From the IMG/VR virus record IMGVR_UViG_2718217897_000004: a stretch of 42,229 nucleotides of DNA; one strand, 5' to 3'. The translations under genes were made by a program, and so were the position numbers. This stretch comes from a virus (lineage: Duplodnaviria > Heunggongvirae > Uroviricota > Caudoviricetes). Under the pieces are notes generated by a model. The model worked only from the letters and a program-made list of their open reading frames with translations, was not told the origin of the DNA and ran no database searches. Shown here piece by piece: positions 892 through 18,969 of this stretch; positions within the stretch are counted from its first letter, which is position 1; the number at the start of each line of letters is the position of its first letter.

Positions 892-981
892 GGAGAGATG
901 CCGGAGCGGCTGAACGGACCGGTCTCGAAAACCGGAGTGGGGGCAACTCCACCGGGGGTTCAAATCCCCCTCTCTCCGCCA
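892..981 (+). tRNA. serU: tRNA-Ser (anticodon CGA), prophage attachment site
   Basis: 90-nt sequence GGAGAGATGCCGGAGCGG...CTCGAAA...GGTTCAAATCCCCCTCTCTCCGCCA with long variable arm and anticodon loop containing CGA; integrase gene lies 53 nt downstream. Confidence 0.9.
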
Positions 982-5386: not shown

Positions 5387-5444
5387 AAAAAGGGCGGCAG
5401 AGCAGTCACGGAGTAAAACTGATACCGCCAAACGTCACCAGAAA
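5387..5444 (-). ncRNA. dicF: DicF small regulatory RNA (53 nt) with 3' U-tract
   Basis: Minus strand reads TTTCTGGTGACGTTTGGCGGTATCAGTTTTACTCCGTGACTGCTCTGCCGCCC followed by TTTTT, which matches recalled DicF; sits immediately upstream of dicB as in Qin. Confidence 0.85.
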
Positions 5445-6601: not shown

Positions 6602-7009
6602 TTATCTTTTGTTTGTTCGTTGACGGGCTTTTAATAACTCTTCAAAGAGTTTGTTGAAATTTTTTACTCGGGCGCGCATCTCGGTGAGCTGAGCATCCTG
6701 TTCTGATTCAGGCAGTGCATTAAAAAGCTCAAGGAGCTCATGTTCTTTGGGGGATAGAGCAACTGGCTCCTCAATAGGTGGTGATGGCTGCTTGTCTTCA
6801 TCGCCAAATAGAATCCATGTTGGCGAGCACTGCAGTACTTTGCTGAGGGCAAAAAGATTCTTTCCTGTAGGTTCGCTATCATCCCGCTCCCATTGTGAAA
6901 CTGATACGTGAGAAATTTTCAGGGCTTTAGCAAGAGACCTTTGGGTGTATTTGAGGTTTTTTCGGCGATATCTAATGCGTTCGCCAATGGTTAAATTTTT
7001 TGTATCCAT
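6602..7009 (-). CDS. dicA: Repressor DicA (CI-type HTH repressor of the immunity region)
   Basis: 135-aa protein MDTKNLTIGERIRYRRKNLKYTQRSLAKALKISHVSVSQWER... matches recalled DicA in length and sequence. Confidence 0.9.
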   Translation of the reverse strand: MDTKNLTIGERIRYRRKNLKYTQRSLAKALKISHVSVSQWERDDSEPTGKNLFALSKVLQCSPTWILFGDEDKQPSPPIEEPVALSPKEHELLELFNALPESEQDAQLTEMRARVKNFNKLFEELLKARQRTNKR

Positions 7010-7044
7010 AGTTAGCTAATGCTAAATCTTATTGACTATGTTTT

Positions 7045-7076
7045 TGTTAACATCTATTTTGTTAGTCATGGCTAAC
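7045..7076. promoter_or_regulatory. Right operator/promoter region between dicA and dicC
   Basis: GTTAGTCATGGCTAAC (7061-7076) repeats the left-operator core; TGTTAACA palindrome at 7045-7052; divergent promoters expected here. Confidence 0.5.
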
Positions 7077-7092
7077 AATTAAGGTGCTTTAA

Positions 7093-7323
7093 ATGCTTAA
7101 AACTGACGCACTTTTGTATTTCGGTTCAAAAACAAAACTTGCACAAGCTGCTGGTATTCGTTTGGCTTCGCTTTATAGCTGGAAAGGGGAGCTAGTACCT
7201 GAAGGTCGCGCGATGCGCCTGCAAGAGGCATCCGGCGGGGAACTTCAGTACGACCCCAAAGTTTATGACGAATATCGTAAGGCAAAGCGGGCGGGGCGGT
7301 TGAACAATGAAAATCACCCCTGA
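7093..7323 (+). CDS. dicC: DicC (Cro-like regulator), divergent from dicA
   Basis: 76-aa protein MLKTDALLYFGSKTKLAQAAGIRLASLYSWKG... matches recalled DicC in length and sequence. Confidence 0.85.
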   Translation: MLKTDALLYFGSKTKLAQAAGIRLASLYSWKGELVPEGRAMRLQEASGGELQYDPKVYDEYRKAKRAGRLNNENHP

Positions 7324-12005: not shown

Positions 12006-12467
12006 GGTATTAAAAAACGCCCCGTATACAGACGTTGATCGCCTGAGATGTGGGGATAGGGAGTTAGTTAAATAGTTATACAACAATACCTGATTTTATA
12101 TTGAAGCAAGAAATAGGTTGCTACATATTGAATCATGCGCGTGTACGTCAAATATGGGAGGTCATCGTGCTGGTTCTGAAATGTGCGCTGGCTGTTGCGG
12201 CAGTAATGGCAATTTATTGTCTTGTTATCGTTCTTATGAATCACCTCTCTGATTGATTTCATATTGGCGAGGTGATGGGAGTTAAGTAGAATGGCTGCGG
12301 GTGCTTGAGGCTATCTGCCTCGGGCATGAACACCAACGGCAGATAGAGAAAAGCCCCAGTTAACATTACGCGTCCTGCAAGACGTTTAACATTAATCTGA
12401 GGCCCAATCTATGCTTCACAAACGTAGGTTAGCCTCTTACGTGCCGAAAGGCAAGGAGAAGCAGGCT

Positions 12468-12623
12468 ATGAAGCAGCAAAAGGCGATGTTAATCGCCCTG
12501 ATCGTCATCTGTTTAACCGTCATAGTGACGGCACTGGTAACGAGGAAAGACCTCTGCGAGGTACGAATCCGAACCGGCCAGACGGAGGTCGCTGTCTTCA
12601 CAGCTTACGAACCTGAGGAGTAA
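12468..12623 (+). CDS. hok: Hok/Gef-family type I toxin (51 aa)
   Basis: MKQQKAMLIALIVICLTVIVTALVTRKDLCEVRIRTGQTEVAVFTAYEPEE carries the Hok signature LTRK-LCE-R-R-G--EVA-F-AYE; in-frame upstream extension from 12411 resembles a mok-like leader; structured leader and terminator flank it. Confidence 0.8.
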   Translation: MKQQKAMLIALIVICLTVIVTALVTRKDLCEVRIRTGQTEVAVFTAYEPEE

Positions 12624-14506: not shown

Positions 14507-14872
14507 ATGACTGAACGCATAGAATTTGTTTTGCCTTACCCGCCGACGGTGAATACCTACTGGCGACGTCATGGCAATACGTATTTCATCTCGGAGGCCG
14601 GAAAGCGTTATCGCCATGATGTGGCGCTAATTGTTCGCCAGCAGCGGTTGAAATTAAACCTGTCCGGAAGGCTGGCGATAAAGATTATTGCAGAGCCACC
14701 GGATAAGCGCCGTCGTGACCTGGACAATATCCTGAAAGCACCACTGGATGCGCTGACGCATGCCGGACTACTCATAGACGACGAGCAGTTTGATGAAATC
14801 AATATTGTGCGCGGTCAGCTCGTTCCTGGTGGGCGGCTGGGGATAAAAATCACAGAACTGGAGTGCGCATGA
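14507..14872 (+). CDS. rusA: Holliday-junction resolvase RusA
   Basis: 121-aa protein with ...TVNTYWRRHGN...DKRRRDLDNILKAPLDALTHAG... matching the RusA family; start overlaps upstream stop. Confidence 0.88.
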   Translation: MTERIEFVLPYPPTVNTYWRRHGNTYFISEAGKRYRHDVALIVRQQRLKLNLSGRLAIKIIAEPPDKRRRDLDNILKAPLDALTHAGLLIDDEQFDEINIVRGQLVPGGRLGIKITELECA

Positions 14873-15558
14873 ATAACCAGTATTTACAGTTTGTGCGTGA
14901 GCAGCTCATTATCGCCACCGCTGATTTGAGTGGGGCAACAAAAGGTCAGCTTGAAGCCTGGCAGGAGAATGCCATGTTCGATACAGGGCGTTACAGGCGA
15001 AAAAAAATCCGGTACCGCGATGAAGTGACTGGAAAAATGATAACGCGGGATAATCCACCAATCCCGGGAAAACAATCACTGGCGAATGGCTCATCAATTG
15101 CCCTAGTCAGCCCGGTTGAGTTTTCGACATCATCATGGCGGCGGGCTTTGCTGTCTCTTGAAGAGCATCATAAAGCCTGGTTGTTGTGGTGTTACGGCGA
15201 GAGTATTTGTTGGGAATATCAGATCGCGATAACACAGTGGGCGTGGAATGAATTTAATACTCAATCCGGTACCAGAAAAATTGCAGGGAAAACGCAGGAA
15301 CGCCTGAAAAAATTAATCTGGCTGGCGGCGCAGGCAGTAAAAGCAGAACTTTTTGGTGGGGAAGGTTATGAATACCAGGAGCTGGCATTACTGGCGGGAG
15401 TGACAACTAAAAACTGGTCCAAAACATTTACTCGTCACTGGGTTGCAATGAAACACATTTTTCAACGACTGGATAGTGAGGCTTTATTGTTTGTAATGAG
15501 AACACGTTCAAAACAAAAGGCGGCATTTTCAAAGCAAAGTGTTGCAAAAGTAGATTGA
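14869..15558 (+). CDS. Putative late-gene antiterminator (Q-position protein)
   Basis: 230-aa ORF between rusA and the lysis region, followed by a terminator; call is positional, no Q zinc-finger recognised. Confidence 0.45.
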   Translation: MNNQYLQFVREQLIIATADLSGATKGQLEAWQENAMFDTGRYRRKKIRYRDEVTGKMITRDNPPIPGKQSLANGSSIALVSPVEFSTSSWRRALLSLEEHHKAWLLWCYGESICWEYQIAITQWAWNEFNTQSGTRKIAGKTQERLKKLIWLAAQAVKAELFGGEGYEYQELALLAGVTTKNWSKTFTRHWVAMKHIFQRLDSEALLFVMRTRSKQKAAFSKQSVAKVD

Positions 15559-15623
15559 AAGGCATATATTTCATGCAAATCTGATATTTTGCCGATTTTG
15601 TACGTGATGGCAAAAGCAAACAA

Positions 15624-15648
15624 AACCCGCCCACAAGCGGGTTTTTTT
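15624..15648 (+). terminator. Rho-independent terminator downstream of the Q-like gene (tR'-like)
   Basis: ACCCGC-CCACAA-GCGGGT hairpin followed by TTTTTTT. Confidence 0.55.
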
Positions 15649-15731
15649 GTGCCACTTATCTCGGATAGACATGGTGAATGCGCTGGTGGAGGAAGTAAGA
15701 GTGATTTTTAACCAGTTGATTTTTTGAGTGC

Positions 15732-15760
15732 TTGCAACATTGATTTCGTAACGTTATTAT
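15732..15760 (+). promoter_or_regulatory. Sigma70-type promoter for the tRNA cluster
   Basis: TTGCAA, 17-bp spacer, TATTAT, ending 9 nt upstream of the first tRNA. Confidence 0.5.
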
Positions 15761-15769
15761 CCTGCGCCC

Positions 15770-15845
15770 GGCCCTTTAGCTCAGTGGTAAGAGCGAGCGA
15801 CTCATAATCGCCAGGTCGCTGGTTCAAATCCAGCAAGGGCCACCA
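15770..15845 (+). tRNA. tRNA with CAU anticodon, Ile2(LAU)-like (ileX/ileZ-like)
   Basis: 76 nt, acceptor GGCCCTT/AAGGGCC, anticodon loop CTCATAA; resembles recalled ileX. Confidence 0.8.
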
Positions 15846-15846
15846 G

Positions 15847-15923
15847 CCGCCACTAGCTCATCAGGAAAGAGCGTCAACCCTTTAAGTTGAGTGTGCGAGG
15901 TTCGAGTCCCCGGTGGCGATCCA
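15847..15923 (+). tRNA. tRNA-like gene of uncertain isotype (possibly degenerate)
   Basis: Cloverleaf can be drawn but with C1-A72 mismatch, one T-stem mismatch and anticodon loop CCTTTAA (C at position 33; anticodon would be UUU). Confidence 0.4.
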
Positions 15924-15925
15924 GT

Positions 15926-16001
<76 letters not shown>

Positions 16002-16004
16002 TAT

Positions 16005-16079
<75 letters not shown>

Positions 16080-16285
16080 GTTAGAGTCTTTCAGTCTGCG
16101 ATGATGGGAAATCCCGGAGTGACTGAAAGACGTTTAAGTTATGAATGATCGCTTTTTTTGCAAAATTGCTGTGCAGAAATACTAACCTTCGGGCAGGCGA
16201 TCATTCATAAGCACTCTGCTTTTATTCCGATTAACTGTGGGTGGTTTGTTGGATAGAGTGCTTCCCTTACTGTATATATCGTTTC

Positions 16286-16310
16286 GCCCGCTTTTGCGGG
16301 TTTTTCTTTT
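16286..16310 (+). terminator. Rho-independent terminator immediately upstream of the holin gene
   Basis: CCCGC-TTTT-GCGGG hairpin followed by TTTTTCTTTT. Confidence 0.5.
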
Positions 16311-16370
16311 CAAATCCCTTTCATTTCTCAGTGTAAAACTACGCCATCCGTTATTTGCGGAGGTGAGGCT

Positions 16371-16586
16371 ATGAAATCCATGGACAAAATTTCAACGGGC
16401 ATTGCCTACGGCACCTCCGCAGGCAGTGCTGGCTACTGGTTTTTACAGTGGCTTGATCAGGTCAGTCCTTCACAGTGGGCTGCGATTGGTGTACTGGGGA
16501 GTCTGGTTCTGGGCTTCCTGACTTATCTGACAAATCTGTACTTCAAAATCAGAGAAGACAAGCGTAAGGCTGCACGGGGAGAGTAA
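16371..16586 (+). CDS. Holin, phage-21 S21-type pinholin with dual-start motif
   Basis: 71-aa [53 protein letters not shown]... matches recalled S21 sequence; Met1/Met4 dual start. Confidence 0.85.
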
Positions 16587-16590
16587 TTCA

Positions 16591-16941
16591 ATGACTCAAA
16601 ACTATGAACTGATTGTGAAAGGGATCCGCAATTTTGAGAATAAAGTTACGGTAACTTTAGCGTTACGGGACAAAAAACGCTTTGACGGCGAAATTTTTGA
16701 CCTGGACATCTCGCTGGACCGTGTTGAAGGTGCCGCGCTGGAGTTTTATGAGGCAGCAGCCAGAAGGAGCATCAGACAGGTCTTCCTGGATGTTGCTGCC
16801 GGGTTATGTGAAGGGGATGAGCAGTCGCCGGAAAAGCGCCCCGTAATTTTAGAGGCGCAGAATGTGTGGATAACCTACAAAGGAAAGCTACCAGGAAGAA
16901 TTACTGGTTCTCTGAAGACTCCTCCGGAATCACAACCTTAA
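16591..16941 (+). CDS. YdfR-like uncharacterised protein inserted between holin and endolysin
   Basis: 116-aa ORF with GGAGAG SD; same position as Qin ydfR; no TM segment. Confidence 0.5.
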   Translation: MTQNYELIVKGIRNFENKVTVTLALRDKKRFDGEIFDLDISLDRVEGAALEFYEAAARRSIRQVFLDVAAGLCEGDEQSPEKRPVILEAQNVWITYKGKLPGRITGSLKTPPESQP

Positions 16942-18429: not shown

Positions 18430-18969
18430 TTAGAAACTGCGTGGAGCTGTGGAAAGAATGGATGCCAGTTCTTCCTTCGATAAATCCCAGCTTCGATTTA
18501 CAGCGTCAATTTTCTTAAACTCATCAAGCATTGCGTTATAGAGATGTTCTGTACGTGAATGAGTATTGGCAATGGGCTGTTTCTGTTCGGGGAAGCGATC
18601 AATTTTCTGATATGCCTCAATGATACTGAAGTAATCGCATTCATTATGACCGTCGAAACCTGGGAGCTGAATTTCCCCATCATGTATTTTTAGATGATGG
18701 TCACGGACTAATTCTTTTTGCTCGTCATCACTAAGTTTCCTGAAAGCATTGGAAAGTCCGCGGTACATATTCAAGACAGCAGTAACAAAATCACGATCTT
18801 CTTTACTTGGTTCATCAACATCCAAATGTGAATATTCGGCCTTCATAACCCAATCATTACCAGATGACACAGCATATTTTACAAGCTGTGGATCAATATC
18901 AGTTTCGATACCTAGGTGGATGGCAATGTCACATAACAAAATGGTATTGATTTTATCCTTAATATCCAT
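18430..18969 (-). CDS. YfbU-family (UPF0304-like) protein, reverse-oriented moron between lysis and packaging modules
   Basis: 179-aa ORF on the opposite strand to all surrounding late genes; segments ...LPGFDGHNECDYFSIIEAY... and ...NAMLDEFKKID... resemble recalled YfbU. Confidence 0.55.
   Translation of the reverse strand: MDIKDKINTILLCDIAIHLGIETDIDPQLVKYAVSSGNDWVMKAEYSHLDVDEPSKEDRDFVTAVLNMYRGLSNAFRKLSDDEQKELVRDHHLKIHDGEIQLPGFDGHNECDYFSIIEAYQKIDRFPEQKQPIANTHSRTEHLYNAMLDEFKKIDAVNRSWDLSKEELASILSTAPRSF

Follow-up and report, generated by a model that had tools for sequence, protein, structure and literature searches.

A conserved structured RNA between the tRNA cluster and the lysis genes of lambdoid prophages of Escherichia coli

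The DNA studied here, referred to as the window, is the whole of the 42,229-nucleotide (nt) stretch of IMG/VR record IMGVR_UViG_2718217897_000004, a lambdoid prophage of E. coli. Between the last of its four clustered tRNA genes and the holin gene, at 16080-16370, it contains a conserved structured RNA composed of hairpins that we named H1, H2 and H3, followed by an intrinsic terminator. The RNA represents a new family of a familiar kind, the non-coding RNAs of prophage late leaders and the trailer RNAs of tRNA operons, and its fold is unusually elaborate for either. It appears to form the tail of a transcription unit separate from the late promoter and consisting of promoter, tRNAs, structured RNA and terminator. 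As for its role, we give roughly even chances to the view that the tRNAs make up an autonomous, Q-independent operon with 16080-16310 as its 3' trailer, its terminator insulating the lysis genes and its trailer acting in trans.

Fold and conservation of the element

Read on the + strand, the RNA from 16080 to 16312 folds to -80.9 kcal/mol and forms three hairpins and the terminator. Its 200 dinucleotide shuffles reach -57 +/- 4.4 kcal/mol (z = -5.47), none of them as good, and the opposite strand attains only -61.3 kcal/mol, 20 kcal/mol worse. The first-pass annotation had reported two inverted repeats in this region. Both are real, each with one arm placed 1 nt off: the 11-bp repeat of H1 (arms in Table 1), where this concerned the 5' arm, and the 14-bp repeat of H2 at 16139-16152 / 16197-16210, where it concerned the 3' arm and where the gap between the arms is 44 nt. 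A third perfect inverted repeat of 9 bp, at 16209-16217 / 16255-16263 in H3, had been missed. The reported terminator was recovered by a terminator scan, with GCCCGC-TTTT-GCGGGT at 16286-16301 followed by TTTTCTTTT up to 16310, which is, as described, 60 nt ahead of the holin ATG at 16371. At the RNA level, this G+C-rich hairpin, GCCCGC-UUUU-GCGGGU, runs directly into the U tract UUUUCUUUU, the predicted signature of an intrinsic (Rho-independent) terminator.

Homologous sequences (see the following section) were used to examine the pairing. H2 and H3 were aligned together as the core (36 distinct sequences), H1 separately (23 variants). In the core, RNAalifold predicts 40 pairs; 97.8% of the alignment cells concerned hold standard pairs, and 11 of the 40 pairs have changed on both sides. 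When partners are shifted by one to three columns as a control, 36-52% of the cells pair and at most 6 pairs appear changed on both sides. By RNAalifold and pair counts, the three helices of H2 are 97-99% paired, with 7 pairs changed on both sides, and the lower-stem pairs of H3 (columns 86-89/128-131) show C-G, U-A and U-G exchanges in 10-17 of the 36 sequences. H1 behaves alike: 96.2% of its cells are paired and 5 of its 17 pairs have changed on both sides, against at most 49% pairing in the slid controls. Compensatory changes are found in all hairpins and the paired positions are kept in diverged homologues, so that the structured RNA proposed by the first-pass annotation is borne out by the very analysis it had called for, structure prediction combined with covariation. 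Of the 1436 paired core cells, 179 are G-U pairs, and these would turn into A-C mismatches if the opposite strand were read; the RNA that functions is hence that of the + strand.

Loops are conserved more than stems, and UUUUUGCAAAAUUGCUGUG in H2 and the block GGGUGGUUUGUUGGAU in H3 are almost invariant. In the upper stem of H3, variation is confined to the 5' strand, while the 3' strand is invariant across the 36 sequences. Such one-sided changes are the pattern expected of a sequence that functions beyond pairing. Within H1, GAUGA and the 3'-side A are invariant among the 23 variants and the adjoining G is at least 90% conserved. As a sequence pattern, its internal loop fits the consensus of the kink-turn, a motif known from box C/D RNAs and from several riboswitches: over 16098-16120, a canonical stem is followed by a bulge of 3 nt, tandem G-A/A-G and a second stem, in the layout GC-GAU-GA-UGGG / CCCG-GA-GU. 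E. coli is not known to have a kink-turn binding protein of the L7Ae type.

Distribution and transcription units

Of 5426 complete E. coli genomes, 535 (about 10%) have a match to the 241-nt core, nearly all at 95% identity or more, and so do six phage records, including HK639 at 77%. Scanning IMG/VR and a single genome per species for the pattern yielded about 100 further copies of 74-100% identity, whose hosts extend to Shigella, Citrobacter sedlakii, Enterobacter hormaechei, Yokenella and Phytobacter. Three more scan matches, in metagenome-assembled genomes of Verrucomicrobiae and Prochloron, were taken as chance, as the pattern is degenerate and no BLAST match among the loci accompanies them. 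About one in ten complete E. coli genomes and classical phages (HK639, in part Fels-1) thus carry this RNA, yet none of the records listed has an RNA annotated there.

The element is modular. H2 is present in all copies and H3 nearly always, H2 without H3 occurring in one further locus (L120) and in Fels-1; H1 is absent from several loci, where tRNA-Gly abuts H2. Salmonella phage Fels-1 contains an H2-only copy and a separate copy of H1 beside a tRNA-Gly fragment. The order there, at about 1856-2575 of the locus (L220), is a 3' fragment of tRNA-Gly, H1, the start of the H2 5' arm, an open reading frame (ORF) for a secreted-looking protein of 120 amino acids (STM0906.1n), and a complete H2, as if a moron had entered the element, duplicating the H2 arm.

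The genomic context was examined in about 34 diverse loci. The element is always found in late-operon orientation downstream of a tRNA cluster, and the lysis cassette follows wherever the locus extends far enough. The Q proteins of these loci differ (30-64% identity or other families), and so do the types of holin and endolysin. A role in lysis timing, which had been put forward for the region, finds no support here: it is the tRNA cluster that accompanies the element, whatever the holin or Q. Homology ends right after H3. In 38 of 44 distinct downstream flanks a terminator follows 1-39 nt past H3; these terminators belong to at least four unrelated sequence types and are often arranged in tandem. 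Three divergent copies (L004, L167, L182) have no terminator past H3 and share a conserved non-coding stretch, AGCGATTnTGTGGCTTAAGAC...GGCATGC, instead.

Upstream of the cluster, the sigma-70 promoter of the tRNA operon has left a clear footprint. Among 37 distinct sequences upstream of the first tRNA, TTGC is found at -38 in 34 and TAT(T/C)AT at -15 in 30; the 17-nt spacer diverges while the boxes hold fixed offsets, and a GC-rich discriminator comes next. By contrast, the promoter scan gave no promoter-like site within 16080-16370. The region had been thought to sit where lambdoid phages place pR' and tR'. This is wrong for the window, in which a promoter-like site and a terminator directly after Q, upstream of the tRNAs, occupy that place (15542-15652; Table 1). 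The promoter-like site of this pair is inferred to be pR' from its position, and terminators at the equivalent place upstream of the tRNA promoter are found in other loci. The element region begins 520 nt past Q, with the pair and the four tRNAs in between. Its position is that of a 3' trailer of the tRNA operon: it reaches from the last tRNA as far as the operon's terminator, shares their strand, and no promoter-like site intervenes. What does follow from the order of pR', terminator and lysis genes is the earlier suggestion of a second terminator that Q-modified polymerase has to pass, no promoter-like site being present after it.

The organization of PP6, a sister prophage in enteropathogenic E. 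coli (EPEC) E2348/69, is instructive. PP6 has the same Q, tRNA promoter and tRNAs, its terminator comes immediately after the last tRNA, and the element is absent. The terminator can thus be assigned to the tRNA unit, with the structured RNA as cargo that was inserted ahead of it. Consequently, the element is not required for tRNA maturation or termination, and the first-pass annotation was right to see more structure here than 3' processing of tRNAs needs. For annotation, this means that the late-promoter unit and the tRNA unit are distinct and that the terminator ahead of the holin gene is that of the tRNA unit. The whole also provides an example of a non-coding moron, composed of promoter, tRNAs, structured RNA and terminator within a late operon and likely expressed in lysogens.

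Two observations concern the flanking units. Rfam matches of the window's pR'-tR' unit to isrK and isrJ are weak and lie below threshold (E 0.02-0.06); the unit likely gives rise to a short transcript of about 75 nt, which may be an RNA of the StxS/IsrK type made in lysogens. In PP6 (L224, about 6960-7110), an STnc100-like start, GGTGAATCCCCCTGTGCGG, lies past the terminator of the tRNA operon and is cut off by an ISEc13 insertion.

Known RNAs and possible roles

At gathering thresholds, a search of the whole window with Rfam 15 gave nothing in 16080-16370, tRNAs being the only matches in or adjoining the region. A permissive search of 15400-16700 added only chance-level matches in 16080-16370 (ceN44 with 15.3 bits, anti-hemB with 13.7 bits, E > 4), and the models of STnc100, AgvB, AsxR and Esr41 do not match there even at E <= 10. 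Literature searches with exact words from the conserved blocks returned irrelevant matches only, none of them carrying the sequence of the element, and nothing specific was found on small regulatory RNAs (sRNAs) derived from tRNA trailers of prophages. Several other ideas were discarded. Readings as hammerhead, T-box, boxA, LexA box or internal promoter were dropped by eye, the motifs being incomplete or unconserved across variants; a likeness of the H2 loop region to RyhB and GcvB was set aside, as neither Rfam model matches there.

Among the RNAs most similar in arrangement are trailers of tRNA operons. 3'ETS-leuZ, the trailer of the E. coli glyW-cysT-leuZ tRNA operon, is an sRNA sponge freed by tRNA processing. 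Like the element, it lies between the last tRNA and the intrinsic terminator of the operon; it is listed as 3'ESTleuZ in an EPEC data set. However, it is about 50 nt long and nearly unstructured save for its terminator, whereas the element RNA measures about 230 nt and has three covarying hairpins, and there is no sequence relationship. Structured RNAs that are co-transcribed with and processed from a tRNA cluster are also known, namely the stable RNAs of the T4 tRNA cluster (species 1 and 2, rnaC/rnaD) and the rtT RNA of tyrT. Homology to these was not detected, as no T4 record appeared in the phage BLAST and the rtT model of Rfam gave no match. Moreover, T4 is a virulent phage, while the unit described here resides in the late leader of a temperate phage and has its own promoter and terminator.

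In prophages of E. coli and Salmonella, the region from Q to the lysis genes is a known niche of sRNAs. STnc100/PasD, PasA/PasC, AgvB, AsxR and Esr41 share this location with the element, and they too end in intrinsic terminators. PasA, PasC and PasD are Hfq-dependent sRNAs beside the holin operon of EPEC prophages (PMC8550237; bioRxiv 10.64898/2026.05.13.724894), and the Pas sRNAs are abundant in EPEC (PMC8550237). An identity of the element with one of them looked promising at first, since PasA and PasC adjoin the holin operon in the vicinity of tRNAs and RusA; PasB is flanked by tail genes. The identity was rejected: a comparison of the window and HK639 elements with the PasA, PasB and PasC loci of E2348/69 (L221-L223; blastn, word size 7) gave only chance matches of 10-19 nt. 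PasD was compared via its reported relative STnc100 in Rfam, which has no match in the region. PasA and PasC are encoded on the strand opposite to the late operon, whereas the element is tied to the tRNA cluster and more elaborately folded. Interaction data from RIL-seq (interacting RNAs are ligated, then sequenced) in EPEC are unusable as evidence of expression, the related EPEC prophage PP6 being without the element.

In HK639 and Fels-1, STnc100 copies share the leader with the element. STnc100 (RF02076) has one copy in HK639 (L001, 3254-3459) and three in Fels-1 (L220, 1273-1486, 1687-1809 and 2810-3028), and every complete copy has a terminator at its end. In HK639, Q is separated from the lysis genes by about 950 nt, in which four terminators are annotated. 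The short pR'-tR' transcripts (lambda 6S RNA, StxS, IsrK) are non-coding RNAs of the late region of lambdoid prophages made in lysogens, with a terminator that is overridden by Q (PMC7547250). They differ from the element in that they start at pR' directly after Q. Their counterpart in the window would be the transcript of 15542-15652, and the element belongs to the other unit.

In the reading that we favor, the tRNA promoter, the four tRNAs, an RNA of about 185 nt (H1-H3) and the terminator would constitute a small autonomous unit inside the late operon. Ordinary RNA polymerase in a lysogen would initiate at the promoter of the tRNAs and go no further than the terminator, leaving the lysis genes silent. 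Processing of the tRNAs would free a trailer of about 230 nt ending at 16310, the 5' end of which would be shielded by a hairpin 2-6 nt past the CCA and the 3' end by the terminator hairpin, and with both ends protected it would last as a stable non-coding RNA. In lytic growth, polymerase modified by Q and coming from pR' would pass tR', the tRNAs, the element and the terminator into the lysis genes. Most likely, the RNA would then be a trans-acting regulator or a sponge. Near-invariant blocks within covarying stems, UUUUUGCAAAAUUGCUGUG in H2 and GGGUGGUUUGUUGGAU in H3, point to sequence-specific recognition of this RNA, and a role in trans is favored because tRNA-operon trailers such as 3'ETS-leuZ act in this way and because the leader between Q and holin hosts terminator-ended sRNAs. 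If the RNA regulates host or phage transcripts, it joins the prophage sRNAs that rewire pathogenic E. coli.

Several points weigh against this reading. The start and stop of transcription, the release by processing, the stability and the action in trans are steps that we infer; what stands observed beside them is the structure, its strand, conservation and modularity, its fixed location past the tRNA cluster, a promoter that is conserved and a terminator that recurs. An ORF of 64-132 amino acids separates tRNAs and element in some loci, so release by tRNA processing cannot be general, and a recognizable terminator is missing from 6 of the 44 flanks. The RNA is also larger and more elaborately folded, with its three-way junction and kink-turn-like loop, than the typical Hfq-dependent sRNA made of seed and terminator. 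The region does have a U-tailed terminator, an A/U-rich spacer and conserved blocks, but the blocks lie largely inside helices, and within the window no complement to the two of them was found beyond chance.

Among the alternatives, a cis-acting module that processes or stabilizes the late mRNA survives best, although we consider it rather unlikely. After excision of the tRNAs by RNase P and RNase E, a hairpin near the new 5' monophosphate end would block 5'-end-dependent RNase E, or the long stems would be cut by RNase III, so that mRNA decay is uncoupled from the maturation of the tRNAs. 5'-terminal stem-loops do protect E. coli mRNAs. A hairpin is indeed found 2-6 nt past the CCA of tRNA-Gly, both with H1 and where H2 abuts the tRNA; the stems covary, and by its position the element is on every late transcript. 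On the other hand, a stem alone would suffice for this purpose, yet loops and one strand of H3 are nearly invariant, and several loci have an ORF or 130-700 nt between tRNAs and element. The terminator that almost always follows matters only for Q-independent transcripts, and the sister prophage PP6 manages without the element. Should the RNA nevertheless work in cis, it would illustrate how a phage can excise tRNAs and still keep its late mRNA stable.

It is improbable, too, that the element lacks a function of its own and consists of decayed tRNA genes or recombination scars hitch-hiking with the tRNA cluster, so that only the terminator matters. Such an origin would fit the coming and going of modules (an optional H1, H2-only copies), the tRNA fragments beside the element in HK639 and Fels-1, the absence of the element from PP6, and the alignment by MAFFT of part of H1 to the T-arm region of tRNA-Gly. 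However, compensatory changes keep the pairing over 74-100% identity, loops are conserved more than stems, and the element is retained across six genera beside unrelated Q and lysis modules. Neither ARAGORN nor the Rfam tRNA model finds a tRNA in 16080-16370.

A comparably small chance is left for a folded RNA, with its three-way junction and kink-turn arm, that binds a specific protein or small molecule rather than a base-pairing sRNA. It might serve, together with the phage tRNAs, as a decoy against tRNA-targeting host defences or RNases, or as a sensor gating Q-independent read-through into the lysis cassette. If true, a protein- or ligand-binding RNA would be a prophage RNA of a new functional class, carried by about one tenth of E. 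coli genomes; unless the RNA proves to be of this kind, no new principle is involved.

Considerably less probable is a riboswitch-like or protein-responsive attenuator, in which H2-H3 senses a signal and sets the stop at 16286-16310 against read-through into the holin gene. Riboswitches in phage lysis modules are known, and the arrangement is suggestive: several helices with covarying stems and with invariant nucleotides in junction and loops form a conserved domain, past which come a variable terminator and then genes. But no pairing competes with the terminator, since minimum-energy folds keep H2, H3 and terminator together in nearly all of about 35 variants, a result of folding alone with a ligand- or protein-induced switch outside its reach. 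Furthermore, the spacer between H3 and terminator is unconserved, the terminators are often doubled, which argues for an unconditional stop, leaky read-through into lysis genes would be harmful in a lysogen, and no Rfam riboswitch matches in the region.

There is very little to recommend a processive antiterminator RNA of the put kind known from HK022 and HK639, which would modify its own polymerase. Like put, the element is a cis-encoded multi-hairpin RNA of lambdoid phages upstream of terminators, and the put-using HK639 has a copy. It differs from put in size, location and sequence: put sites, as defined in PMC9378689, reside in early operons, whereas the element comprises 125-185 nt and three hairpins with a three-way junction in the late leader downstream of Q. 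BLAST places it at a single site in the HK639 genome, and it is therefore not similar to the put sites of HK639 itself. Tandem terminators just after it and Q upstream would make an antiterminator both redundant and dangerous.

A small protein is the least credible product, for although short ORFs of 32-45 amino acids exist in the region (for instance a 32-amino-acid ORF with TTG start at 16158-16256) and two phage records annotate a hypothetical protein under the match, no ORF of at least 60 amino acids is present in 16080-16370, indels of 1-2 nt between the variants of the core alignment disrupt the short ones and shift every frame, substitutions track base-pairing and not codon positions, and RefSeq annotates nothing there among the genomes listed.

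Neighboring features of the window

The features of the region and its neighborhood are collected in Table 1. The tRNA-Gly ends at 16079, and the element starts at 16081. The tRNA with anticodon CAU is a tRNA-Ile in the RefSeq annotation of an identical region. Near-identical E. coli chromosomes in RefSeq have the same genes annotated and nothing in the 290-nt stretch.

Table 1. Coordinates of the element, its parts and the neighboring features in the window.
Feature	Position	Strand	Remarks
DUF968/HNH protein and RusA	near the element	+	neighbors of the region
Antiterminator Q	14863-15558	+	PF06323; ORF and Pfam
pR'-like late promoter	15542-15570	+	TTGCAA-17-TATATT; promoter scan; overlaps the end of Q
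tR'-like intrinsic terminator	15622-15652	+	AAAACCCGC-CCACAA-GCGGGTTTTTTTG, read directly; scan gives the hairpin on the - strand
Sigma-70 promoter of the tRNA operon	15732-15760	+	-35 TTGCAA 15732-15737; -10 TATTAT 15755-15760
Four tRNA genes (CAU, Lys-UUU, Thr-UGU, Gly-UCC)	15770-16079	+	ARAGORN, Rfam tRNA model, RefSeq annotation of identical region
H1 hairpin	16081-16137	+	optional module; perfect arms 16086-16096 / 16121-16131
H1 internal loop	16098-16120		GC 16098-99; bulge GAU 16100-02; GA 16103-04; UGGG/CCCG 16105-08/16113-16; GA 16117-18; GU 16119-20
H2 hairpin	16139-16210	+	core module; 14-bp lower stem and three-way junction
H2 8-bp arm	16155-16179	+	nearly invariant loop AAAUUGCUG
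H2 mini-hairpin	16186-16193	+	C(UUCG)G
H3 hairpin	16209-16263	+	core module; 9-bp lower stem, 7-nt 5' bulge, upper stem
H3 upper stem, 3' strand	16239-16254	+	invariant G/U-rich block GGGUGGUUUGUUGGAU
Spacer between H3 and terminator	16264-16285	+	A/U-rich, unpaired; sequence not conserved
Terminator of the tRNA operon	16286-16310	+	terminator scan
Class II (phage 21 S-type) holin	16371-16586	+	first gene of the lysis cassette; ORF, Pfam PF04971 1.4e-35
DUF1327/YdfR protein, lysozyme, Rz	after holin	+	ORFs/Pfam

In related loci (L019, L048, L022, L045, L076, L114, L087), the cluster's second tRNA varies greatly and is frequently unusual: ARAGORN reports undetermined anticodon loops, the anticodon UUA ("Stop") or Phe(AAA). 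That of the window (Lys-UUU, 15847-15923) reaches only 40.5 bits and shows mismatches in the acceptor stem. Just past the lysis cassette, a gene of the YfbU family (18430-18969) is located on the - strand, opposite to the late genes; it probably represents a moron lodged between the genes for lysis and those for HNH/terminase. Near the left end, at 892-981 (+), lies a tRNA-Ser (CGA) gene, possibly the host tRNA beside the integration site of the prophage. At gathering thresholds, Rfam further matches DicF at 5392-5443 (-) with 76.7 bits and sok, the antitoxin of the hok/sok module, at 12299-12473 (+) with 113 bits, which makes at least two further known regulatory RNAs in this prophage.

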